A stretch of DNA of 59,138 nt, the filler included, from Nitrospinae bacterium RIFCSPLOWO2_12_FULL_45_22 (GTDB lineage Bacteria; 2-12-FULL-45-22), in assembly GCA_001803565.1 (NCBI GenBank). It is 6 parts of 6 records of this genome, joined end to end, with 100 filler letters (N's around TTAATTAATTAA, not from the genome) between each part and the next. Parts side by side here need not be neighbours in the genome. Positions count along the whole stretch, not along the records: positions 37,162 to 53,718 come from MHDQ01000258.1; 5 more parts are not named here. The stretch is one strand, 5' to 3'. Position 1 is the stretch's first letter. Every line of letters starts with the position of its first letter. The notes beneath the pieces are model-generated. The model was given only the letters and a program-made list of their open reading frames with translations. It was not told the origin of the DNA and searched no databases. The position numbers and the translations under genes are program-made. Of the stretch, positions 5,940 to 58,429 are shown one piece after another.

Positions 5940-6039
5940 NNNNNNNNNNNNNNNNNNNNNNNNNNNNNNNNNNNNNNNNNNNNTTAATTAATTAANNNNN
6001 NNNNNNNNNNNNNNNNNNNNNNNNNNNNNNNNNNNNNNN
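5940..6039. other. Artificial contig linker (also 12451-12550, 27735-27834, 37062-37161, 53719-53818)
   Basis: N-run, TTAATTAATTAA (stops in all frames), N-run. Confidence 0.97.
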
Positions 6040-12314: not shown

Positions 12315-12613
12315 ACCCTGGACACCCTCTCAATCAGAGCACTAAGGAAAATGGTAACCGTTCACCCCGGTAACCTTTATCTGCCACTAAGACACCACTA
12401 CAAATTCATTACAAAATTAGCACTGCAAAATTAGCAATTAACAAGAAGGANNNNNNNNNNNNNNNNNNNNNNNNNNNNNNNNNNNNNNNNNNNNTTAATT
12501 AATTAANNNNNNNNNNNNNNNNNNNNNNNNNNNNNNNNNNNNNNNNNNNNTCATTCGGGTAAATTAGGGGTTAATAAATGTGACCCTTTTAAGACAAAAA
12601 GGAGGCGGGGAGG

Positions 12614-27733: not shown

Positions 27734-27835
27734 CNNNNNNNNNNNNNNNNNNNNNNNNNNNNNNNNNNNNNNNNNNNNTTAATTAATTAANNNNNNNNNN
27801 NNNNNNNNNNNNNNNNNNNNNNNNNNNNNNNNNNT

Positions 27836-30904: not shown

Positions 30905-31096
30905 GAATCTGTCACAAAATAACTTGATCAATTGTATTGTATAGGAGTTTCCTTTTTTAGTGTAAGAAGAGGAGATATGGGGATGGTAGGGATAGGGAGA
31001 TTTATATATAATTCTTTTTATCTCCAACATCTCCTTTATCCTCTTATCTCCTTGTCTTACACATTTAACTTGATCAAGTTATTGCGTAGCAATGCC
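30905..31096. mobile_element. MITE with TAA target duplication, long form
   Basis: Ends GAATCTGTCACAAAATAACTTGATCAA / TTGATCAAGTTATTGCGTAGCAATGCC; copies at 34343-34423 and 36917-37061. Confidence 0.85.
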
Positions 31097-34342: not shown

Positions 34343-34423
34343 GAATCTGTCACAAAATAACTTGATCAATTGTATTGTATAGGAGTCTCCTTTAACTTGA
34401 TCAAGTTATTGCGTAGCAATGCC
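34343..34423. mobile_element. MITE, short 81-bp form, TTA-flanked
   Basis: Same termini as 30905-31096. Confidence 0.85.
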
Positions 34424-36916: not shown

Positions 36917-37061
36917 GAATCTGTCACAAAATAACTTGATCAATTGTATTGTATAGGAGTTTCCTTTTTTAGTGTAAGAAGAGGAGATATGGGGATGGTG
37001 GGGATAGGGAGATTTATATATAATTCTTTTTATCTCCAACATCTCCTTTATTCTCTTATCT
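36917..37061. mobile_element. MITE long form, truncated by contig end
   Basis: Near-identical to 30905-31049. Confidence 0.8.
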
Positions 37062-37162
37062 NNNNNNNNNNNNNNNNNNNNNNNNNNNNNNNNNNNNNNN
37101 NNNNNTTAATTAATTAANNNNNNNNNNNNNNNNNNNNNNNNNNNNNNNNNNNNNNNNNNNNC

Positions 37163-37348
37163 TTGCCTATAACCTATTCTTTAGAGGGTATGAGGTTAGC
37201 GCTACTTAAGGGTCATTCCCTAAATGCTTTATTGCCGAATCTGCTTGCTCTATCTATATTCACATTGGTGCTGCTACCCTTAAGTATCATGTCCTTCCAG
37301 TGGGCGGTAAGGAAAGCCAAGCTCCAGGGCACCCTTACGCATTATTAA
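37163..37348 (+). CDS. ABC-2 type permease C-terminus, truncated
   Basis: LPITYSLEGMRLALL, TM helix, AVRKAKLQGTLTHY. Confidence 0.75.
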   Translation: MPITYSLEGMRLALLKGHSLNALLPNLLALSIFTLVLLPLSIMSFQWAVRKAKLQGTLTHY

Positions 37349-37351
37349 TTT

Positions 37352-37457
37352 GGGTGTGGCTATTTTCTGTCACAAAAACCCGTAACTCAACCCTGGTTGA
37401 CCAATTAGGGCTAAAGCCCTGAGTTACACCTACTTATGACAAAGAATAGCCACACCC
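37352..37457. mobile_element. MITE with 9-bp TSD containing a REP-like palindrome (37382-37427)
   Basis: IR GGGTGTGGCTATT / AATAGCCACACCC; flanks TATTAATTT and TATTGATTT. Confidence 0.8.
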
Positions 37458-37582
37458 TATTGATTTCATTGAGGTTTGGCCATGTTGTTCAGTACCTTCC
37501 GTGGTAAAAATTAAGAAAAATGGGTAAAGGGGGGAAAGGAATGACCTTAAATACCAGGGATAAATGAAAAAAGGAGGGGATA

Positions 37583-37744
37583 ATGAATAAAAAATCAGAT
37601 AATAGCAAAAAAGATAGGAAGCACTATCATAAGCCTCAGCTAACCAGGATTAGATTGGTTATCGAGGAGGCAAGATGGGAAACCTGTAAACCTGCTCCTG
37701 ATTGTGTAAGTCACGGACCAATAACGCGTAATCCTGGGTCTTAG
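37583..37744 (+). CDS. Putative RiPP precursor, 53 aa: MNKKSDNSKKDRKHYHKPQLTRIRLVIEEARWETCKPAPDCVSHGPITRNPGS
   Basis: AAGGAGG RBS; YxKPxL RRE-type leader motif; stop 6 nt before the first enzyme gene; below the ORF-track cutoff. Confidence 0.85.
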   Translation: MNKKSDNSKKDRKHYHKPQLTRIRLVIEEARWETCKPAPDCVSHGPITRNPGS

Positions 37745-37750
37745 CTAATA

Positions 37751-38659
37751 TTGAAGGAATTAAAGCTAGAAATCGGTGGTATTACCATCCGGGTTGCCTC
37801 GGCTAAGAATCTGTATTTAAAGGTTGACCCGGCCCATGAGCTTTTCCTTGTTCAAGATACTCAATGCGATTTTATCTTGCAGGTAAATTCCCCCCCTGCC
37901 CCTAATTGGCAATCAAAAGAAGTAATCTATCTTTCTAAAGGACTGTGGAGCCTCTATCGTATTGAAGGGAAATTCTTAATTATCCTTTGCTCTCCAGCGC
38001 CGGGTTCTTTTCCTTACCAGGCCGTTATATTCGATGAAGGCCTTAAAGACGGTGAATTATACATCCAACCAACAAATAATTATTCTGTCTTCGATTTACC
38101 ACCCCCAACACTTACGACAACTCCCATATTGATTAACCCTTTTACCTATCCCCTGGAAGAGCTACTGATGGTTATGCTCCTCTCTAGGCGATCAGGATTA
38201 ATCATCCATGCCTGCGGAATTAACTATAATGGCCGGGGAATACTGTTTGCCGGTACCTCCGGGGCAGGAAAGAGTACTCTGGCTAATATCTGTGGGGGAA
38301 AAGATATGTCATTACTCAGTGATGACCGGATCATCGTGCGCTCGATTGGGGATCGTTTCTGGATGTATGGCACTCCCTGGCACGGAGATGCCAGGGCTTG
38401 TTCACCCGAGAGGGTACCCCTGGAGAAGATATATTTGCTAAGGCATGACTATGAGAACCAGATAGTCCCTTTGCCGATAATGGATGCAGCATCCAGGTTA
38501 CTTGTATGTTCTTTCCCTCCATTTTATGAAAAGAGGGGCATGGAAGATACCTTAGACCTTTTGGAGCGCCTGGTCAAACATGTAGCCGTTTTTGAATTAA
38601 GATTTGTCCCGGATGATAGTGTTCTAGCATCAATTAAGGATCATTTAAAAAATGAATGA
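37751..38659 (+). CDS. HPr-kinase-like P-loop protein, putative peptide kinase
   Basis: IHACG, GTSGAGKST Walker A, LSDDR, YGTPWHG. Confidence 0.8.
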   Translation: MKELKLEIGGITIRVASAKNLYLKVDPAHELFLVQDTQCDFILQVNSPPAPNWQSKEVIYLSKGLWSLYRIEGKFLIILCSPAPGSFPYQAVIFDEGLKDGELYIQPTNNYSVFDLPPPTLTTTPILINPFTYPLEELLMVMLLSRRSGLIIHACGINYNGRGILFAGTSGAGKSTLANICGGKDMSLLSDDRIIVRSIGDRFWMYGTPWHGDARACSPERVPLEKIYLLRHDYENQIVPLPIMDAASRLLVCSFPPFYEKRGMEDTLDLLERLVKHVAVFELRFVPDDSVLASIKDHLKNE

Positions 38660-39125
38660 ATTAGTTAGACCTGGTCAGGATGGGGCTATTATGGAGTTGG
38701 TGAAAGAGCTTCTATTAAATGGAAAAATGATCCGTGCCCGCACCGAAGGGAAAAGTATGTATCCCTGCATACGGGAAGGGGATTATGTTACTGTCAAACC
38801 TGTAAGGTATGAAGAAGCCAGGATAGGGGATATCCTGGCTTATGAGCGAGATCCGGGTATTCTCACGGCACACCGTCTACTCAGGAAAAATTCCTATCTC
38901 ATCACCAAAGGTGATGCTAATATAAGCCCCTTTTATGATCCGCCTATATCTCCGGAAGCCCTCCTGGGTAAGATAATAAAGATTGAACGTGCTGGAAGGG
39001 TAATCCAGATGGAAAAGCCGATCTACCGGATAAAGGGATATATCATTGCTTATCTCCTTATCTGCAGGGCAAAATATCTATATTATAAGGGATTAGGCAT
39101 GTGGTTTAACAATCTGGTATTATAG
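38652..39125 (+). CDS. S24/S26-family peptidase
   Basis: GKSMYPCIREGD, AHRL, ITKGDAN. Confidence 0.85.
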   Translation: MNELVRPGQDGAIMELVKELLLNGKMIRARTEGKSMYPCIREGDYVTVKPVRYEEARIGDILAYERDPGILTAHRLLRKNSYLITKGDANISPFYDPPISPEALLGKIIKIERAGRVIQMEKPIYRIKGYIIAYLLICRAKYLYYKGLGMWFNNLVL

Positions 39126-39134
39126 AGGGAATAT

Positions 39135-39428
39135 ATGTGCTATTTGGAAAAATGTTACCAGAAGGATCCAAATATTGTCTTTCGTAGGATAGCGGATGAG
39201 GTTATACTGGTACCCATCCGGCAGGATGTGGCCGACATGGAATCTATCTATACCTTGAATGAAGTAGGCTCTTTTATCTGGGAAATCATCGAAAGTCAAA
39301 GGACTGTCGCACAGATAAAGGAATTGATCATAGCGGAATTTGAAGTGGACCCGGAAACAGCTGAGTTTGACCTAATAGAGTTTCTGGTGCAATTGGAAGC
39401 GGCAGGGGTGCTTGAGGAGCTTAAGTAA
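39135..39428 (+). CDS. PqqD-family RiPP recognition element
   Basis: IVFRRIADEVILVP, YTLNEVGSFIWE, EFEVDPETAEFDLIEFL. Confidence 0.92.
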   Translation: MCYLEKCYQKDPNIVFRRIADEVILVPIRQDVADMESIYTLNEVGSFIWEIIESQRTVAQIKELIIAEFEVDPETAEFDLIEFLVQLEAAGVLEELK

Positions 39429-39454
39429 AGGGTATTCACAGGAAAATTTGTCAT

Positions 39455-40534
39455 ATGGGGTGTTCTCATCTTCCCGAAATAAAATATGCTGAGTTTAGCA
39501 GGCACCTGCATAAAAAGTCCATAGCGGAACGGATACCCCTTCATGGGACGATAGAGCTGACCTTTCGCTGCAATCTAAATTGTGTGCACTGTTATTGTCC
39601 CACACTTGGGCCACAAGATATAGAGAGAGAGCTCAATTATCAAGAGATTTGTCGGATCATAGATGATATGCTGGCCGAGGGTTGTCTCTGGTGGACAATC
39701 TCTGGTGGAGAGCCCCTGATCCGCGAAGATTTCCAGGACATTTATATTTATGCCAAGAAGAAGGGCTTATTAATAACACTGTTTACCAATGGGACCTTGA
39801 TTACTACCCAGGTGGCCGATTTTCTGGATGAGTGGCCCCCATTTCTGGTGGAGATTACCCTATATGGGATAACAAAAGAGGTCTATGAGTCTATTACTGG
39901 TATCCCGGGATCTTTTACGCAGTGCATGGAAGGGATCGAGCGTCTGCTGGCACGGAATATCCGCCTGAGATTGAAGACTGTGGTGCTGACCTTGAACCAA
40001 CACCAGCTCTATGATATCAAAAGATATGTGGAAAGTTTGGGAGTAGGGTTCCGGTACGACCCAATGATTAACCCAGGCCTGGATGGATCCAGTAGACCCA
40101 AAAATTATAGGCTAACACCGGAAGAAGTAGTGAACCTGGATCTGGCTGATGAAAAACGTCTCCAAAACTGGAAAGAGGTAATGGAGAAGTATAGGGATAG
40201 TCCTAAAGATAATCATCTTTACACCTGCGTAGCGGGATTAGATTCTTTTCATATAAACCCCTATGGGGATATGCAGTTATGCATAATGGTCCAGAGGCCT
40301 GTTTACAGTCTTCGCCAGGGTTCTTTTAAAGAGGGTTGGCATAAATTCTTACCCAGGCTCCGGGCACAAAGGCCCAAAGGTGACTATAAATGCCCTGGTT
40401 GTGAGAGAAGCTCCCTCTGTCATCAATGTCCTGCCTGGGCCCAACTGGAGAACCATGACCCAGAAACACCAGTGGAGTACCTCTGTCAGATTGCCCACCT
40501 CAGGGCTGAGGTCTTTGGTAAAGATTCACGGTAA
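39455..40534 (+). CDS. Radical SAM/SPASM peptide maturase
   Basis: CNLNCVHC, SGGEP, TNG; SPASM CVAG..INPYGDMQLC..CPGC...CHQC..C. Confidence 0.92.
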   Translation: MGCSHLPEIKYAEFSRHLHKKSIAERIPLHGTIELTFRCNLNCVHCYCPTLGPQDIERELNYQEICRIIDDMLAEGCLWWTISGGEPLIREDFQDIYIYAKKKGLLITLFTNGTLITTQVADFLDEWPPFLVEITLYGITKEVYESITGIPGSFTQCMEGIERLLARNIRLRLKTVVLTLNQHQLYDIKRYVESLGVGFRYDPMINPGLDGSSRPKNYRLTPEEVVNLDLADEKRLQNWKEVMEKYRDSPKDNHLYTCVAGLDSFHINPYGDMQLCIMVQRPVYSLRQGSFKEGWHKFLPRLRAQRPKGDYKCPGCERSSLCHQCPAWAQLENHDPETPVEYLCQIAHLRAEVFGKDSR

Positions 40535-40783: not shown

Positions 40784-42319
40784 ATGAAATTTGGCCTCAT
40801 CGGCAAAGCCGATAAGCTACTCGCCGATGAATCGGTGATTCGCAAGGAGGTGATAAAAAATGGGGTAAACGGAGCTTTTACGTCACTGTTAGTAATAGAT
40901 AATCCTCCCCTGGCTGAATTTGTCATAGATTTGATGGAGAATATGGGTTTTACAGTCAAACTCATATCCCCTTCTAAAGAGGGTACAGAAAGAATCAAGA
41001 ACACGGGGTTTGATCTGGTATTATTCGATAGCAATTGTATTAAAAATCGATATAGTTTGCTGAACTTATGCAAGGCTTCTGGAGAATCTCAAAAGGCTCC
41101 TGTAAGTATCCTTATGGCCGAGAGTCATGAATCGGGTCTGATCACGGAGATAATAAAGGCAGGGATATCTGGTATCATCATTAAGCCGATAAACCCAGAA
41201 GAGTTAGTAAGGGTATTGAATAACACCTGGGGAAGGGAGATATTCAGATTGAAGAGGGGGTTTTACGAAGATGAGCCGGAGGGCCGATGGGATTCAGGAC
41301 CAGTCCTCATTGGGAAAGCCCCCAGTTTTTTAGAGATAAAAGAGGTGGCCAGGAGGGTAAGCAACTCTGATCTCCCGATTCTCATATGCGGAGAGAGCGG
41401 TACCGGTAAGGAATTGTTGGCCAGATATACCCATGAGCATTCCGGGAGAAAAGGGAGGGGATTTTTACGGGTGAACTGTGCGGCTATCCCCCAAGACCTA
41501 CTGGAGAGTGAGCTCTTCGGTCATGAAAAAGGTGCCTATACAGGGGCTCACTCCTTCAAACCGGGTAAATTCGAGTTTGCTAATGGTGGGACCATGCTCC
41601 TGGACGAAGTAGGAGAGATACCCTTTAGCCTTCAGGCCAAGCTATTGCACGTACTTCAAGACGGGACTTTTGAGAGGCTCGGGTCTAATAAGCCCGCAAA
41701 GACTGATGTAAGGATTATGGCAGCAACCAATACAGACCTAAAGGTTGCTATTGAGGAGAATAGGTTCCGAAAGGATCTATTTTACAGGCTGAATACGGTA
41801 ACCTTTATCCTGCCCCCTTTAAGGGAGAGGATAGAAGATATACCCTTACTCCTCAATTATTTTATGGATCTCTATAGTAAAAGATACAAGCAGACCAAGG
41901 TGGACATCCCGGATGAAACGCTGGAGGTTTTTATGAATTACACCTGGCCGGGAAATGTGAGAGAGTTAGGGAATATAATCCGACAGATAGTGGTCATGCA
42001 GGGTGTGGAAATACCCCTGGCAAATATCAATAAATCTTTTGACAAAAGGCATATTCATAGGTTACAACTGATGGATTCCCTGTCCAGGGATGGGCCATTA
42101 GAGTCACACAATAATGGTATGGAGTGGCCCTCCCTGGCGGAGGCCACCCAGAAAGGCCGCCAAGAGACTGAAAAGGCCCTGATATTGAAGGCTCTCCAGC
42201 ATACCTGTTGGCATAAAAAATCAGCCGCAAAACTCCTCCGGATATCCTATAGGGCATTACTTTATAAGGTTAAGCAGTATGGGTTGGATAGTGGGGCAAG
42301 TTCCCGGCATAAACCATAA
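40784..42319 (+). CDS. Sigma54-dependent (NtrC/AtoC-like) regulator with a divergent receiver domain
   Basis: GESGTGKE, ESELFGHEKGAYTGA, LDEVGE, FRKDLFYRLN, WPGNVREL, Fis-type HTH; start uncertain. Confidence 0.92.
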   Translation: MKFGLIGKADKLLADESVIRKEVIKNGVNGAFTSLLVIDNPPLAEFVIDLMENMGFTVKLISPSKEGTERIKNTGFDLVLFDSNCIKNRYSLLNLCKASGESQKAPVSILMAESHESGLITEIIKAGISGIIIKPINPEELVRVLNNTWGREIFRLKRGFYEDEPEGRWDSGPVLIGKAPSFLEIKEVARRVSNSDLPILICGESGTGKELLARYTHEHSGRKGRGFLRVNCAAIPQDLLESELFGHEKGAYTGAHSFKPGKFEFANGGTMLLDEVGEIPFSLQAKLLHVLQDGTFERLGSNKPAKTDVRIMAATNTDLKVAIEENRFRKDLFYRLNTVTFILPPLRERIEDIPLLLNYFMDLYSKRYKQTKVDIPDETLEVFMNYTWPGNVRELGNIIRQIVVMQGVEIPLANINKSFDKRHIHRLQLMDSLSRDGPLESHNNGMEWPSLAEATQKGRQETEKALILKALQHTCWHKKSAAKLLRISYRALLYKVKQYGLDSGASSRHKP

Positions 42320-42345: not shown

Positions 42346-42813
42346 TTGTGCAAAATGCTTGATAGAGAGACTAATACGCTAGAGAAGGAATATTTTAACT
42401 ACTGGCTGAATATAGAGATGAAGAGGGCCAAAAGGTATCAGTACTGTGTTAGCTTGCTTATGCTGGAAATCAACGGGAACTCGGAAGGGAAAGATTTGAG
42501 TGATATAATAGCTGCCCTGGATCTGGTTAGAAGTGAGATAAGGGAATTTGATATCATCGGGAGGCAGGATGTATCCAGATTCTCCCTACTTATTTCATAC
42601 ACAGATGAGAGAAGTACCTTTCTCGTGGGGGAGAGGATAAGGGGTCAGTTGCAAGCCCTTTTCCTTCCGCCCGGGCAGACAAGTGAGAAGGCCTTTTATT
42701 TAGGAGGCTGCTGCTACCCTACCCATGTGACCAGTTTCTCAGATATAATGGGAAAGGCCGGGCAGATGCTGGATGAGGCAAAAAAAACCGGTAAGAGACT
42801 TGTCCTTCCTTAA
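42346..42813 (+). CDS. Degenerate GGDEF-fold protein
   Basis: EMKRAKRY, SLLMLEI, IREFDIIGR then QDVSRF in place of GGDEF. Confidence 0.7.
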   Translation: MCKMLDRETNTLEKEYFNYWLNIEMKRAKRYQYCVSLLMLEINGNSEGKDLSDIIAALDLVRSEIREFDIIGRQDVSRFSLLISYTDERSTFLVGERIRGQLQALFLPPGQTSEKAFYLGGCCYPTHVTSFSDIMGKAGQMLDEAKKTGKRLVLP

Positions 42814-53718: not shown

Positions 53719-53821
53719 NNNNNNNNNNNNNNNNNNNNNNNNNNNNNNNNNNNNNNNNNNNNTTAATTAATTAANNNNNNNNNNNNNNNNNNNNNNNNNN
53801 NNNNNNNNNNNNNNNNNNGGT

Positions 53822-54148: not shown

Positions 54149-54190
54149 CAGATTAATTGATTGACTGTGGGTTTAATAATTGGTTTTCCT

Positions 54191-57100
54191 ATGCTACGAG
54201 TACCGGCTAGAAATGTTAAGCTTTTCTTTTTGCTACTATTAATGGTAGGGCTGATTTTCTTGTCCACCAGTCCGGGTTGGGCAGCAAGGATTAAAGCTAT
54301 AAATGTCATACCAGATCCCACGAAATATCGCGATTGGGCCAGAATGCCATCGCTAAATGATAAAGGGCAGATAGCCTTTATAGCTGGTATCTTTCAGGAT
54401 GCTTTTCCGGATAGAACCGATGTCTTATTCTATGATGGTAACACCTTTACTAACATTACCGCGGATATGGATATTAGTCCGCACGCGGCTAATAATTGGC
54501 CCAACAACCCTATCCTCAATAATTATGGCCAGATAGCCTTTCATAAGGGAGGCGATATCTATTTTTATGATGGTATCAGTATCAAGAATATTACCGGCAA
54601 ACTCGAGATAGAACCTTATGATCTTTATCTTTATAGCTATGTGCTTAATGATTCAGGTCAGATCGCTTTCCCAGCCACTTCTTCCGCTGGGTATGATGTC
54701 TATTTTTATGATGGGACCTCGATCATCAATATCACGGCTGATTTGGATATGGATGCTGGTGCCCCCAGTCTCAATGATAATGGCCAGATTGCCTTCCATG
54801 TCTATGGTGCCGCGGCTAATCATTGGGATATCTATTATTATGATGGCGTGACCCTTACCAATATTACCGCCAGTTTGGATATCTCTGCCTATTCACCCAT
54901 TATTAATAATAAAGGACAAATAGCCTTCCGGGGCCAGACCGGCGAGTCAGGGCATCATGATATCTACCTTTATGATAGCACGGGCATTATTAATATCACT
55001 GCCCAGGCAGGTATTTATCTTGATGCCGATTTTTACCATGCCCTTTGGTTAAATAATAATGGTCAATTGGTCTTTAACGGTACTGATAGGTTCTCGGACA
55101 AATGGCTCACGGATAAAACAGGGATCTATCTTTACGAGGGAACTGCCCTCACACACATCTCCTCTTACTCCAGTCGGCTTAGCCTGAATGACCGGGGTCA
55201 AATAGCCTTTTTCTCGTCGCAAGGACCGTTTCCCACTAATGTCTATTTTTATGATGGGAAGAGCATAGTTTATAGAGGTCCAGGAGGATGTTCAGAAGGC
55301 ATTATACACCTCAATAACAAAGCCCAGATAGTCTATGAGACACCGGCATGTACCTTTGGCCAATCGATCTATTTTTTTGATGGGACTTATAGCAGTAATA
55401 TCGTAGAATTGCCCAGATCAGCTAATCTCAGGATCAGCAAGGTAGTAGCCAATGAAAATAGTTTCTCAGCCGAGGACCCTGCCCTCAATGATCAGGGACA
55501 GATAGCCTTTGTGGGACAGGATCGTGGGGACTATTATAAAGATGTCTATCTCTATGAGGGAGATAAAATAACCAATATTACCGCGGATTTAAAGGTTCAT
55601 GCCCAGGCCCCGGCCATTAATAATAGCGGCCAGATAGCCTTTTTGGCTAGTGATTTTAACGCTCAGAAGCCTGATATTTATTTTTATAATGGTCAAAACC
55701 TTGAAAATATTACAGCCGATCTAAATATCTCAGTTAGCGGCCCCAGCCTCAATGATCTCGGTCAAATAGCCTTTCTAGGCTCTTACTCATACGGCAGCCC
55801 TGATCAGGGTTATAAACAGATTCATCATATATATTTTTATGATGGGTCCGAAGTGACCAATATGACGGCCAATTTAAATATTTCAGTGATATATAATTAT
55901 AGCATTGGCCTTAATAATAAAGGTCAGATTGCATTCTGGGCTCAGGATAGCTCTTCCGGCCGTAAGGATATTTATATTATGGATGGTACCAAACTCATCA
56001 ATATCACTTCCCGACTAAATGACGTAGAATTCAGCTACATGCCTGATGTTGATCTAAATGATCATGGCCAATTGACCTTTTCTGCTCATATACCGGCTTC
56101 TGGGAGGTATGGAGTTTATTTTTATGATGGGATTGCATTTAAATATACCCCTGCCCTTTCAGATCTTCCCATTGGCCGCCCAAATATCAACAACCAAGGT
56201 CAAGTTGCCTTCATTAGCTGGGATCAGCAGAATCCGCATGTTTATCTCTATGATAGGGATATATTGATTGATATTACTGCTAACTTAGAGGTTAAGTCCT
56301 TTAGGCTAAGTGGCTTGAGCTTAAACAATAAGGGTCAGGTAGCTATTGGTTATACACCTTACCCTTATGGGTATAATAAAAGTCAACAGGATATCGCCTT
56401 CTATGATGGGCAAAAGTTTATCAATATTACCCATAATGAAACTAAATATTGCCCTTGCTCTTCCCTTGACATTAATGATAAAGGTCAAACTGTATTTTCA
56501 GGAAGAGACTCTGCCGACAGAATAGCCCTCTATTTCTATGATGGGAGAGACTTTACCAATATTATTTCTGATAGCAATATTAGCCATTACTCTGCAACTC
56601 AGCTTTACCCCAGTTTGAATAATAAAGGTCAGGTTGCCTTTTCCACCCCACAATTTTATTTGCATGGCCCTTCTCCTAATGATATTTATTTCTACGATGG
56701 GAACATCCTTAAGCATATTACCGCCAATATGAGGCTATCAGTATCTCCTCCCAGCTTGAATAATAATGGCTGGATAGCCTTCTCGGGCGCTACCTGGGAT
56801 GAACATTGGAAGCAAATATCCAATATTTACCTTTATGATGGTAATACCCTTAAGAATCTTACCGCGGATTTAAGAATCTTGGCTAATCCACCCACCTGGG
56901 CTATTTCGCCCAGCCTCAATGATCGGGGTCAGATAGGATTTACAGTATATAAAAAGGATTACACCCGTTCAGATATCTACCTTTATGATGGGGAGAAGTT
57001 TAGCAATATTACCAGCCATTTGACCGTTTCTTCCTCAAATCCAAGCCTTAATAATAATGGACAGATAGCCTTTGAAGGTTTTGACGACGCCACTGGCCGC

Positions 57101-58429
57101 CGGGACATCTATCTTTATGATGGAAAGCAGATCACCAATATCACTGCCAAGCTAGCTTTTTCTACCTCATCGCCTGTACTGAATGATTATGGTCAGATAG
57201 CCTTTAAAAAATGGATTCGTGAAGCCACTGCCGTAGGGTCCCCTGCATATATAGTATTGCCGGCGGAAGAGGTCTATTTTTATAATGGCAGCAAGATCAT
57301 CGAGGTCATCCACCAGATAAAGGTAGACTATCTTGACCTTTCTTTGAATAATCAAGGCCAGATAGCCTTTAGTGATAAATATAATATCTATCTTGCTCAG
57401 CCTAATAAGTCACCTATAGCAGAGGCAAGTAATAATCAGAAGGTTGTCCCTGGCTCTACAGTAAAGCTGGATGGCTCAGGCAGTAGCGATCCGGAAGACG
57501 ATCCCCTCTCCTACTCGTGGTTCTTGGTGGCAAAGCCAGCGGGTAGTAATGCCTATCTAGCTGATCAGAATAAGTCAAGTCCTAGCTTATTAACCGATCT
57601 GGCAGGTATCTATGAAGTACAATTGGTAGTCGGTGACGGTATAGATGAGAGTGCTCCGGATAAAGTAATTATTACTGCGGTTGGTCCCAAACAAGGCCCC
57701 GTGGCTTATGGCGGCCCTGATCAGGTGGTATCTACTGGCTCTACCGTTATTCTTAATGGGGCTAATAGTTATAGCCCCAATGACGATGATCTAGTCTACA
57801 ACTGGTCCATTATCTCCAAACCGGATGATAGTAGGACCCCTCTGGCGAATGCGTATGGTGAAAAATGGGCCCTTATAGCGGATGCAGATGGTATCTATGA
57901 AGTACAGCTGATAGTCAGTAATGATCAATCAGTAAGTGAACCTGATACCGTGACCATCATTGCCCTGGGAAAAGGCGCAAAGATCAGAGTAGCCTCCAAT
58001 AAATCTCAATATATGCCGGGTGATACCCTCCAGCTATATATCTGGACCGGTAATGCCACCATAACGCCAGAAGTTAAAGCCGATGTCTTTATGGGAATCG
58101 GCTTCCCTAATGGCAGGCTCTATTTCTTTGACCCGGCCTTGAACCTGAAACCAGCTAACCCTACTGATCCAGGGAGCTTCATACCCTTTGCCCAGGGAGC
58201 TATCCTGACCTCCGGTTTCGTATTTCCCACCTCGGCCGAGATGAATGCCGACAGCGATGGCAACGGCAAGTTGGATACCTTTCGCCTCTTCTCGGTAACC
58301 CTGCCACCTAATTTACCCCTGGGTTCCTATTTTGCCTTCGCGGCTCTAGCCGAGCCGGGCACGGCCCAGACAGGTGCCCCCAAACTCATCGGGCAGGTCA
58401 GTATCGCCTCTTTTATTATTAGCCCTTAG
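54191..58429 (+). CDS. Large exported beta-propeller repeat protein with two PKD-like domains and a conserved C-terminal domain
   Basis: Signal peptide; 22 repeats of LN(D/N)xGQIAF...IYxYDG...NITA; V.LDGSGSSDP...YSW PKD-like units. Confidence 0.88.
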   Translation: MLRVPARNVKLFFLLLLMVGLIFLSTSPGWAARIKAINVIPDPTKYRDWARMPSLNDKGQIAFIAGIFQDAFPDRTDVLFYDGNTFTNITADMDISPHAANNWPNNPILNNYGQIAFHKGGDIYFYDGISIKNITGKLEIEPYDLYLYSYVLNDSGQIAFPATSSAGYDVYFYDGTSIINITADLDMDAGAPSLNDNGQIAFHVYGAAANHWDIYYYDGVTLTNITASLDISAYSPIINNKGQIAFRGQTGESGHHDIYLYDSTGIINITAQAGIYLDADFYHALWLNNNGQLVFNGTDRFSDKWLTDKTGIYLYEGTALTHISSYSSRLSLNDRGQIAFFSSQGPFPTNVYFYDGKSIVYRGPGGCSEGIIHLNNKAQIVYETPACTFGQSIYFFDGTYSSNIVELPRSANLRISKVVANENSFSAEDPALNDQGQIAFVGQDRGDYYKDVYLYEGDKITNITADLKVHAQAPAINNSGQIAFLASDFNAQKPDIYFYNGQNLENITADLNISVSGPSLNDLGQIAFLGSYSYGSPDQGYKQIHHIYFYDGSEVTNMTANLNISVIYNYSIGLNNKGQIAFWAQDSSSGRKDIYIMDGTKLINITSRLNDVEFSYMPDVDLNDHGQLTFSAHIPASGRYGVYFYDGIAFKYTPALSDLPIGRPNINNQGQVAFISWDQQNPHVYLYDRDILIDITANLEVKSFRLSGLSLNNKGQVAIGYTPYPYGYNKSQQDIAFYDGQKFINITHNETKYCPCSSLDINDKGQTVFSGRDSADRIALYFYDGRDFTNIISDSNISHYSATQLYPSLNNKGQVAFSTPQFYLHGPSPNDIYFYDGNILKHITANMRLSVSPPSLNNNGWIAFSGATWDEHWKQISNIYLYDGNTLKNLTADLRILANPPTWAISPSLNDRGQIGFTVYKKDYTRSDIYLYDGEKFSNITSHLTVSSSNPSLNNNGQIAFEGFDDATGRRDIYLYDGKQITNITAKLAFSTSSPVLNDYGQIAFKKWIREATAVGSPAYIVLPAEEVYFYNGSKIIEVIHQIKVDYLDLSLNNQGQIAFSDKYNIYLAQPNKSPIAEASNNQKVVPGSTVKLDGSGSSDPEDDPLSYSWFLVAKPAGSNAYLADQNKSSPSLLTDLAGIYEVQLVVGDGIDESAPDKVIITAVGPKQGPVAYGGPDQVVSTGSTVILNGANSYSPNDDDLVYNWSIISKPDDSRTPLANAYGEKWALIADADGIYEVQLIVSNDQSVSEPDTVTIIALGKGAKIRVASNKSQYMPGDTLQLYIWTGNATITPEVKADVFMGIGFPNGRLYFFDPALNLKPANPTDPGSFIPFAQGAILTSGFVFPTSAEMNADSDGNGKLDTFRLFSVTLPPNLPLGSYFAFAALAEPGTAQTGAPKLIGQVSIASFIISP

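Follow-up and report, generated by a model that had tools for sequence, protein, structure and literature searches.

A putative RiPP operon joining a kinase and signal-peptidase module with a radical-SAM/SPASM enzyme in a Nitrospinae genome

The window analyzed here, i.e., the whole stretch of 59,138 nt from Nitrospinae bacterium RIFCSPLOWO2_12_FULL_45_22 (GCA_001803565.1), carries five co-oriented genes in which a very small open reading frame (ORF) is followed by genes for an HprK-like kinase, a signal-peptidase homologue, a PqqD-like protein and a radical-SAM enzyme. The question raised by this locus is whether the five genes make a peptide that is formed on the ribosome and modified after translation (RiPP) and, if so, whether the pathway belongs to a class already described. 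The original prediction had read it as a non-lasso RiPP pathway in which a radical-SAM enzyme modifies the peptide, a kinase phosphorylates it and a protease of the signal-peptidase type sets it free. The conserved small ORF and the position of the radical-SAM enzyme outside every curated family support that reading. The closest published system is the family of linear polyphosphorylated peptides (LPPs), which Popov et al. (Nat Commun 2026; PMC13381572) described from the lppA-K-B-S-D-N genes of Paenibacillus alginolyticus. We consider it probable that the locus is a RiPP operon joining machinery of the LPP and paeninodin type with a radical-SAM/SPASM maturase, working as an LPP-like pathway with an added radical-SAM/SPASM crosslinking step. 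The tight packing of the five genes was borne out by the ORF listing, with 6 nt between the first two genes, an overlap of 8 nt between the second and third, and then gaps of 9 and 26 nt.

Precursor peptide and cassette in related genomes

The first ORF of the operon had been proposed as a hidden precursor of 53 aa. It is preceded by a GGAGG Shine-Dalgarno sequence 5 nt 5' of the ATG, and the YxxPxL motif claimed for it was found as Y15-H-K-P18-Q-L20. Cys35-Lys36 opens the conserved core, a second Cys is at position 41, and the peptide ends in Gly-Ser; the putative core, C35 to S53, has 19 aa. A precursor profile built from 20 small ORFs matched the window ORF (7.3e-15), once in the window, and one small ORF in each of 46 related loci. 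Besides the window, 46 genomes from about 13 phyla thus bear a precursor. The Shine-Dalgarno sequence and these matches bear out the hidden gene, and the conserved small ORF beside homologous genes, which the original prediction had set as its own test, is present in the 46 loci plus the window. No Pfam or NCBIfam family was found for the window ORF, and ten precursors searched against NCBIfam at E <= 10 gave 0 families. In the protein collection, none of the 53 matches of the profile has a Pfam domain, and all are either without a name or called "hypothetical". The collection also holds P0144, a 53-aa protein that is 98% identical to the window precursor and likewise ends in Ser. Judging from this conservation, the 53-aa ORF is a genuine precursor.

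Family features were counted in 47 precursors, the window one included. The leader motif [Y/F]xxPx[L/I/V] was found in 47/47, with Tyr as the first residue in 46 and Phe in one. The distance from this residue to the first core Cys is 20 residues in 45/47 and 21 in 2/47, as expected for a site that is positioned by a leader-bound complex. Lys directly follows the first core Cys in 41 precursors, and three core Cys are present in 44. Forty of the peptides end in Ser and four in Thr, with a final Gly-Ser in 34. An acidic E-E-A-V-L-like stretch is shared, and between the core Cys the residues vary freely. Each locus has a single precursor, and no immunity gene is evident.

Relatives of the cassette were sought in one genome per species; 577 were found and the best 80 loci were kept (L001 onward). 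The loci L001-L049 hold full-length relatives of the radical-SAM enzyme with 35-59% identity, and the later ones hold mostly other radical-SAM families. For the cassette census, the five window proteins were compared with all ORFs of 46 loci, i.e., L002-L049 without L046 and L048. Of these, 45 have the HprK-like gene, 44 the precursor, 42 PqqD and 33 the S26 peptidase, some of the absences falling at contig ends; the precursor profile matched in L049 too. The common gene order is PqqD, radical-SAM, small ORF, HprK-like and S26 peptidase. The window order differs, i.e., small ORF, HprK-like, S26, PqqD and radical-SAM, with the small ORF still directly 5' of the HprK-like gene. In a quick maximum-likelihood tree built from 53 radical-SAM sequences, the window forms a pair with L001, which comes from a Syntrophaceae metagenome-assembled genome (MAG), with SH-aLRT 93. 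Accessory gene labels cluster on this tree, and the label for Peptidase_C25 needs 5 changes against a shuffled mean of 12.4.

Several other genes recur beside the cassette. A PF14907 nucleotidyltransferase, counted here as an NTP (nucleoside triphosphate) transferase, was found in 11 of the 46 loci. It is fused to the S26 peptidase in three of them (Table 1), with a GNAT acetyltransferase domain between the two parts in L005. In L004 and L006 it is the gene next to the peptidase, and in L007 it is close by. L005 and L008 have a pair of ABC-2 permease and ATPase genes beside the cassette, and L004 ends with a fragment of an ABC-2 permease gene. Polysaccharide-export, Wzz-type, PilZ or GGDEF genes, which relate to c-di-GMP and exopolysaccharide, are near the cassette in L002, L004, L006, L026 and L027, those for polysaccharide export specifically in L002, L004 and L027. 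Homologues of sigma-54-dependent regulators are near it in L004, L006, L007, L011, L015, L020, L026 and L029, and two of these eight loci were confirmed by Pfam. When 528 neighboring ORFs were clustered, no other cluster extended to more than nine loci, a subset of the clusters having been scanned against Pfam. In L005, an Omnitrophota MAG, an ORF for an IS200-like (Y1_Tnp) transposase with HTH domains was seen at 57-962, about 300 nt upstream of the cassette.

Proposed recognition, modification and release of the peptide

The domains assigned by the original prediction were largely recovered, i.e., kinase, peptidase, PqqD and Radical_SAM matches were obtained, although most of them stay below curated cut-offs. 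The 97-aa protein matched Pfam PqqD (7.7e-17), and its best NCBIfam match was lasso_PqqD_Bac (7.2e-10), below the cut-off of 80. When its profile was searched against solved structures, the matches were TbiB1 (8.3e-12), LppB (9x8z_B, 8.1e-9) and PbaB1 (9x90_B, 2.2e-8), followed by the weaker TfuB1 (2.8e-6) and PqqD (1.2e-5). The entries 9X8Z and 9X90 are LppB and PbaB1 complexed with their leaders (PMC13381572). From these similarities, the 97-aa protein appears to be a discrete RiPP recognition element (RRE) of the lasso-B1/LppB type. Its residue D79, conserved in at least 90% of 31 sequences, is probably the counterpart of the leader-Tyr-binding Asp of LppB, D70, because of the D-x3-F-x3-M-x4-L spacing.

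The 359-aa protein matched Pfam Radical_SAM (5.4e-19) and 68 NCBIfam families, none of them near its cut-off, i.e., NirJ2 (114.8 vs 500), MftC (109.3 vs 265), AlbA (79.2 vs 850), ScmE (77 vs 400), ScmF (67.1 vs 400) and PqqE (66.5 vs 381.35). With NirJ2 as the best score, the enzyme stays under every curated family cut-off, and the assignment to a characterized class that the original prediction had named as a refutation was not obtained. The SPASM assignment held in part. The Pfam scan gave no match to a SPASM model, and yet seven SPASM-type Cys (C258, C276, C313, C316, C322, C325 and C344) are invariant in 20/20 aligned homologues, as is the CxxxCxxC motif (C39/C43/C46). The closest solved structures are SkfB (3.3e-13) and PqqE (4.1e-9). 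The AF2 model of the enzyme, made from the 20-sequence alignment, was poor (pLDDT 57.1). In the protein search, 2900 of 4702 candidates matched at E <= 1e-3. Among the matches listed, 119 besides the window's own were 52-61% identical over at least 97% of the query; these homologues belong to MAGs spread over many phyla, and such names as they carry are generic. The sequence data thus point to a distinct, unnamed family of radical-SAM/SPASM peptide maturases.

The likeness to MftC raises another reading, in which a few invariant residues, i.e., Cys-Lys or the C-terminal Gly-Ser, would be modified and excised as a small product, a cofactor or small molecule like pyrroloquinoline quinone (PQQ) or mycofactocin, and the rest of the peptide would be discarded. 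A peptide, a PqqD-like chaperone, a radical-SAM/SPASM enzyme and a peptidase are the architecture of PQQ and mycofactocin pathways, and MftC is the best full-length similarity in NCBIfam, covering residues 28-324. The enzyme is unusually conserved across phyla, as the identities among the matches listed indicate, the core has few invariant positions with intervening residues free to vary, and the single precursor per locus with no evident immunity gene would suit a cofactor as well. However, MftC, PqqE and PqqD (25.9 vs 46) are all far under their cut-offs, and membership in the mycofactocin and PQQ families was rejected on these scores. The RRE is nearest to lasso B1 and LppB, not to PqqD, and partner dehydrogenases do not recur in the neighborhoods. 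The kinase, NTP transferase, ABC exporter and polysaccharide context agree better with a peptide that is decorated and exported than with a redox cofactor kept inside the cell. We regard a cofactor product as improbable.

The 302-aa protein matched Hpr_kinase_C (6.4e-5) with 23 bits against a cut-off of 33.3, and HprK_rel_B (2.1e-11), HprK_rel_A and ScmC, all far under cut-off. Its alignment with HPrK/P spans the His, the P-loop and the DDR motif. In 31 kinase sequences, H153, G173-K174, R197 and G-T-P-W 207-210 are invariant, the pair D191-D192 is always acidic, and the P-loop G-x-S-G-x-G-K174-S/T is conserved. The AF2 model (pLDDT 91.4) was matched by Foldseek to PEPCK (4.7e-7) and to HPrK/P 1knx (7.6e-6), also 1ko7 and 1kkl, and the modelled fold is that of a PEPCK-like kinase. 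H153, K174 and the acidic pair match the His-Lys-Asp-Asp motif that was shown to be essential in lasso peptide kinases (PMC9266682). The wider HprK-like family is large; its profile gave 44738, 16126 and 3679 cluster representatives (clusters at 50% identity) at E <= 1e-3, 1e-10 and 1e-30, respectively.

The kinase and the radical-SAM enzyme are also joined in single proteins. Nineteen fusion proteins of the Rosetta-stone kind carry a radical-SAM half, 32-43% identical to the window enzyme over 79-93% coverage, and a PF27840 domain. In the two fusions that were checked, the C-terminal half matched the window HprK-like protein at 3e-29 and 2e-29. These fused relatives are annotated with PF27840.1 (ScmC), and the nearest Atlas clusters carry PF27840 in 16-28% of their members.

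The 157-aa protein matched Peptidase_S24 above cut-off (1.3e-5) and sigpep_I_arch (1.3e-12) with 47.8 bits against 51.85. G33, S35, M36, H74, R75, G87 and D88 are invariant in 22/22 peptidases. A search of the PDB with the single sequence gave no match at E <= 1, whereas the profile search succeeded, with SEC11C (9.5e-12) and SEC11A (7.1e-11) ranked over bacterial SPase I (2.8e-6) and LexA (8.3e-4). This ranking suggests an ER/archaeal-type Ser-His enzyme (S26B, SipW/Sec11-like). For the 19-residue stretches before the catalytic Ser, the Kyte-Doolittle maximum is 1.21 in 22/22 peptidases; with no hydrophobic 19-mer before this Ser, the peptidase is therefore presumably unanchored, unlike a true signal peptidase. 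The site S35/H74/D88 parallels the published catalytic site of LppS, S29/H68/D93, and the Ser-His spacing is 39 residues in both (PMC13381572). LppS is the leader peptidase of the LPP pathway, and it cuts after F-E-T only when LppB is present (PMC13381572). By this parallel, the window enzyme is a putative RRE-dependent leader peptidase.

The gene order, the conservation of the cassette and of the precursor, the retained catalytic residues and the fusion rest on direct evidence. From homology and conservation, we infer every step of the following pathway, i.e., leader binding, radical-SAM chemistry, phosphosite, cleavage site and export. First, the RRE would bind the precursor by the YxxPxL motif, the leader extending the RRE beta-sheet and the conserved Asp hydrogen-bonding the Tyr. 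The core would then be presented by the RRE to the radical-SAM/SPASM enzyme, which most likely installs one or more intramolecular crosslinks by way of the conserved Cys. Provided that the pathway makes a RiPP, crosslinks of the thioether type known from sacti- or ranthipeptides are our favored guess, held tentatively. In the third step, a hydroxyl residue would be phosphorylated by the HprK-like kinase, possibly several times. In the window precursor the likeliest phosphosite is Ser53, because it is the sole conserved hydroxyl residue and paeninodin-type kinases target the C-terminal Ser. Fourth, the cytoplasmic signal peptidase I (SpI)-like Ser/His peptidase would remove the leader, depending on the RRE, within the five residues before Cys35. 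One candidate cut is directly before Cys35, after W-E-T, resembling the LPP F-E-T; L009 has F-E-T itself before the core Cys. The other candidate is after E-E-A at Tyr+15, the LPP ruler distance, a position held by Ala, Val, Ser or Thr in 39/47 precursors. Last, the product would be exported by an ABC-2 transporter. In relatives with PF14907, the nucleotidyltransferase would decorate the phosphate, by analogy with PsmN and LppN.

A number of points weigh against this pathway. The sequence does not reveal the type of radical-SAM chemistry, and among full-length models the enzyme is most like MftC, which is a C-terminal decarboxylase/crosslinker and not a thioether synthase. The kinase site is uncertain: three of the 47 precursors end in Pro or His with the kinase still present, and the window core has no Ser or Thr at positions 3-4. 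The LPP phosphosite is Ser3 of the core and not the C-terminus (PMC13381572). The residues before the core Cys, mostly Gly (18), His (8), Ala (7), Thr (4) and Phe (3), give no clean -1 pattern of a signal peptidase, and the S26 peptidase was undetected in 13/46 loci, some of which are shortened contigs. For the window itself, the exporter evidence is a fragment only, no PF14907-like NTP transferase ORF was found anywhere in the window, and the precursor is atypical, sharing its two-Cys core only with L008 and having the shortest core of the 47 precursors, 19 aa against a mode of 24-27. The favored model also leaves unexplained the giant C25 and/or DUF11 proteins that adjoin the cassette in 26/46 loci.

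The atypical precursor might mean that the cassette of the window is in decay or incomplete and has ceased to yield the normal product of the family. The missing third Cys and the short core would agree with this, as would the lack of an NTP transferase in the window and a gene order that departs from PqqD-rSAM-precursor-HprK-S26. On the other hand, the five ORFs are intact and tightly coupled and keep every invariant catalytic residue, a precursor from another sample (P0144, above) is 98% identical and still ends in Ser, the two-Cys core of L008 accompanies a full cassette, and the missing genes may sit past the contig edge. Decay of the window copy is therefore considered very improbable.

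The giant proteins lead to a different reading, in which the cassette would be an accessory of the cell surface or biofilm instead of a natural-product pathway in its own right. The modified phosphopeptide would then anchor, prime or regulate a polysaccharide or the giant C25/DUF11 proteins, and the SpI-like peptidase might also process these proteins. Peptidase_C25 (gingipain-like) proteins of 738-2525 aa adjoin the cassette in 19/46 loci, often with Propeptide_C25, SdrD_B, DUF11 or CarboxypepD_reg repeats, and their labels cluster on the radical-SAM tree as given above. In seven more loci, all acidobacterial, there is an ORF of more than 1300 aa with DUF11 repeats. It has an N-terminal S26 domain in six of them, and these six appear to encode the peptidase fused to a giant surface protein; an S26-DUF11 ORF of L020 has a C25 domain as well (Table 1). 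The polysaccharide and c-di-GMP genes near five of the related loci and in the window also suit such a role. LPP clusters are likewise embedded in capsule loci, with a biofilm role speculated on by their authors (PMC13381572), and PsmN, a nucleotidyltransferase homologue, puts a hexose on the phosphate of phospho-Ser (PMC9266682). However, no C25 or DUF11 protein is in range of the cassette in the window or in L001-L011, its nearest relatives, and the association is one of neighborhood only. Processing of the SipW type needs a membrane-anchored enzyme, whereas these peptidases have no N-terminal anchor, and LppS was shown to be a leader peptidase (PMC13381572). We give this surface-accessory role a low probability.

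Returning to the RiPP operon, a wider claim can be made tentatively, and we hold it to be rather unlikely as a whole. The cassette would define a new RiPP class of very wide occurrence, with at least 46 species-level genomes in about 13 anaerobic phyla, most of them uncultured. In this class, a lasso/LPP-type module of leader, RRE, kinase and SpI-like peptidase, having taken up a radical-SAM/SPASM enzyme, would make a Cys-crosslinked peptide with a (poly)phosphate or a phospho-linked sugar or nucleotide at the C-terminal Ser. The product would act outside the cell with polysaccharide, biofilm or the giant gingipain-like proteases, e.g., as an anchor attached through a phosphodiester or as a regulator of a protease, and not as a classical antibiotic. 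If the reading as an LPP-like RiPP operon is right, the phosphorylating RiPP machinery that is so far linked to lasso peptides and the LPPs of Bacillota would be joined to radical-SAM chemistry across many uncultured phyla, and leader peptidases of the signal-peptidase type would reach beyond Bacillota. The precursor family with its strict Tyr-to-Cys ruler would also give a route to the role of the unnamed radical-SAM/SPASM family, and the way in which giant C25 proteases and polysaccharide loci keep recurring beside the cassette points to a putative role at the cell surface.

Contig setting of the operon

At least six contigs make up the window, a pseudomolecule in which they are joined by artificial linkers that consist of N44, TTAATTAATTAA with stops in six frames, and N44. 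The cassette is at the very start of a 16.5-kb contig (37162-53718). Because of the linker at 37062-37161, the contig begins at 37162 and the genes to the left, which include a 2-hydroxyglutaryl-CoA dehydratase subunit and an FBPase, are unlinked to the cassette. The features of the window and of the related loci are collected in Table 1. 3' of the GGDEF gene are a tRNA-Asp and unrelated metabolic genes.

Table 1. Coordinates of features in the window and in related loci and proteins.
Feature	Record	Position	Strand	Remark
Precursor gene, 53 aa	Window	37583..37744	+	First of five co-oriented ORFs
HprK-like (ScmC-like) P-loop kinase gene, 302 aa	Window	37751..38659	+	TTG start
S26B-type signal-peptidase homologue gene, 157 aa	Window	38652..39125	+	Assigned from profile similarity
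Discrete PqqD-family RRE gene, 97 aa	Window	39135..39428	+	Assigned from profile similarity
Radical-SAM/SPASM maturase gene (putative), 359 aa	Window	39455..40534	+	
ABC-2-type permease, 3' end, last 61 codons	Window	37163..37348	+	Contig-edge fragment
Long imperfect inverted repeat, 106 nt	Window	37352..37457		38-nt arms; between permease stop and precursor gene
Sigma-54-dependent response regulator gene	Window	40784..42319	+	Pfam/NCBIfam
Stand-alone GGDEF-domain protein gene	Window	42346..42813	+	Pfam/NCBIfam; genomic context only
Artificial contig linkers	Window	5940-6039, 12451-12550, 27735-27834, 37062-37161, 53719-53818		
S26 peptidase-PF14907 fusion	L002	10174-11781		
S26 peptidase-PF14907 fusion	L005	3892-5970		GNAT domain between the parts
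S26 peptidase-PF14907 fusion	L008	5285-6871		
Peptidase_C25 genes	L020, L022, L025, L028, L030, L031, L033-L042, L044, L045, L049			Adjoin the cassette
Peptidase_C25 gene, example	L030	125-7693		
Peptidase_C25 gene, example	L033	166-7500		
Peptidase_C25 gene, example	L044	10588-13656		
S26-DUF11 ORFs, >1300 aa, often >2000 aa	L012, L013, L016-L019	e.g., L013 10736-17071		
S26-DUF11 ORF with C25 domain	L020	10150-16473		
Radical-SAM/HprK-like fusions, 635-803 aa	P0174-P0192, P0235			

An upstream ABC-2 permease had been read as the exporter of the pathway. The 61 codons left at the contig edge do match an ABC-2 permease, i.e., the YhgE/Pip C-terminal model (3.3e-4) and the permease adjoining the L005 cassette (7e-12), but the gene is a fragment, and no ATPase subunit of an ABC exporter is visible on the window contig. 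The contig edge at 37162 may likewise conceal an NTP transferase gene. Neither a lasso cyclase nor a B2 protease was found in Pfam and NCBIfam scans of 14 contig ORFs, which agrees with the absence noted by the original prediction.

Between the permease stop and the precursor gene, the region 37340-37470 folds at -50.7 kcal/mol (z = -9.0), and 0/200 shuffles were as good. The arms of the inverted repeat are 79% complementary. It had no Rfam match, tRNA-Asp being the only result of the Rfam scan, and it could be a terminator, an attenuator or a mobile-repeat hairpin. Scans for sigma-70 promoters and terminators gave no excess over shuffles. The sigma-54 promoter pattern was not above chance, and none was found upstream of the window precursor gene; the sigma-54-dependent response regulator is a possible operon regulator on weak evidence.

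Elsewhere in the window, a separate run of 32 N is at 908-939. On the + strand of the preceding contig, a 21-nt sequence occurs three times with 0-1 mismatch (30932-30952, 34370-34390 and 36944-36964), outside ORFs of at least 120 aa. By 100 shuffles, 0 chance occurrences are expected, and the sequence has the look of a dispersed intergenic repeat. The unlinked next contig encodes a 1422-aa protein (54161-58426) with DUF7453 and PKD domains and without C25 or DUF11, which is probably a large surface protein.

Comparison with known systems

The enzyme can be compared with the maturases of sacti- and ranthipeptides (AlbA, SkfB and SCIFF-type) and with PqqE and MftC. These share a SPASM radical-SAM enzyme and a small RRE-bound peptide with the window, and the Cys-containing core and the SPASM Cys set of the window family add to the likeness to the sacti- and ranthipeptide systems. 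The RRE is an N-terminal domain in those maturases, whereas it is a separate protein here, and none of their family models reaches its cut-off with the window enzyme.

The combination of HprK-like, PqqD-like and radical-SAM/SPASM proteins is also that of SynChlorMet (ScmC/D/E/F) and of the HprK-related A and B systems, which are bioinformatically defined families of NCBIfam/TIGRFAM with no characterized product to our knowledge. The predicted likeness to these cassettes has some ground in the fused relatives with PF27840, but all models are far below cut-off, the Scm and HprK_rel scores being 12-35% of the curated values. SynChlorMet was rejected with ScmC at 24.7 vs 125 and ScmD at 35.1 vs 100, beside the ScmE and ScmF scores given above, and the HprK-related systems with HprK_rel_A at 27.4 vs 200 and HprK_rel_B at 43.5 vs 200. 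SynChlorMet also has two radical-SAM genes against one here, and the window adds an S26 peptidase. In the literature search, no paper was found with an HprK-like kinase and a radical-SAM/SPASM enzyme in one RiPP cluster.

The LPP family has as core genes the SpI-like LppS, the discrete RRE LppB, the HprK-like LppK, the NTP transferase LppN and an MsbA-like exporter; LppK adds up to four phosphates to Ser3 of the core (PMC13381572). The likeness is broad. Both have a discrete RRE of the lasso type, an HprK-like kinase, an archaeal/ER-type signal-peptidase homologue with a Ser/His/Asp site, a YxxPx[V/L] leader, an ABC exporter and the context of a polysaccharide locus. The end of the window leader, W-E-T, resembles the LPP cleavage site F-E-T, and an NTP transferase is present in the closest relatives of the window, although the window itself has none. 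Thus, as judged by sequence similarity, the SpI-like Ser/His/Asp peptidase, the LppB-like RRE and the HprK-like kinase of an LPP cluster are found in the window, whereas an NTP transferase in the cluster and the precursor consensus with Ser3 are not, and a further core-modifying enzyme is present.

The differences are equally clear. "Radical SAM" has 0 occurrences in the LPP main text, and LPPs as described there have neither a radical-SAM enzyme nor a conserved Cys core (PMC13381572). Their phosphosite is core Ser3, and their exporter is MsbA-like against ABC-2 here. The LPP precursor motif is YxxPxVLxHQxIxFETxxS (PMC13381572), so that the leader continues VLxHQxIxFETxxS, and the window family shares only YxxPx[LIV]. 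Cleavage is at Tyr+15 in LPPs, whereas it would be up to Tyr+19 in the present cassette. The LPP family is described as restricted to Bacillota (PMC13381572), and the present cassette was found in about 13 other phyla. LPP membership was rejected on these grounds, since the Ser3 motif is lacking, an enzyme is added, and both the exporter type and the phyla differ.

The original prediction knew of no characterized product for this gene combination. For the module of kinase, RRE, SpI-like peptidase and exporter this no longer holds, and the idea of a signal peptidase as leader peptidase is no longer new, because the LPP family was characterized in May 2026 (PMC13381572). The radical-SAM step and the Cys core are undescribed in its main text. 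Supplementary Data 1 of the LPP paper lists SpI homologues from Acidobacteriota and "Deltaproteobacteria" with co-localized RREs, undiscussed in the main text, and one non-Bacillota RRE of the supplementary data visibly resembles the window RRE (PMC13381572). In the domain matrix of Supplementary Data 2, "Radical_SAM" and "Peptidase_C25" are given once each as column labels (PMC13381572). Because of these SpI and RRE entries and domain labels, members of the present cassette probably lay in the LPP dataset, unanalyzed there.

Paeninodin-type lasso peptides share the other half of the machinery. In lasso precursors, the C-terminal Ser is highly conserved and is the residue to which the kinases PadeK, ThcoK and SyanK add phosphate (PMC9266682). 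As in the window family, an HprK-like kinase with the His-Lys-Asp-Asp motif acts on a leader-bearing precursor with a conserved C-terminal Ser, next to a B1-type RRE, a [Y/W]xxPxL leader and a nucleotidyltransferase homologue. Membership in the lasso peptides was rejected, since the B1-type RRE and the YxxPxL leader are present and the cyclase and B2 protease were not found. The window differs in having a serine peptidase of the SpI type instead of the B2 cysteine protease, and the place of the class-defining lasso cyclase (C) is taken by the radical-SAM/SPASM enzyme.

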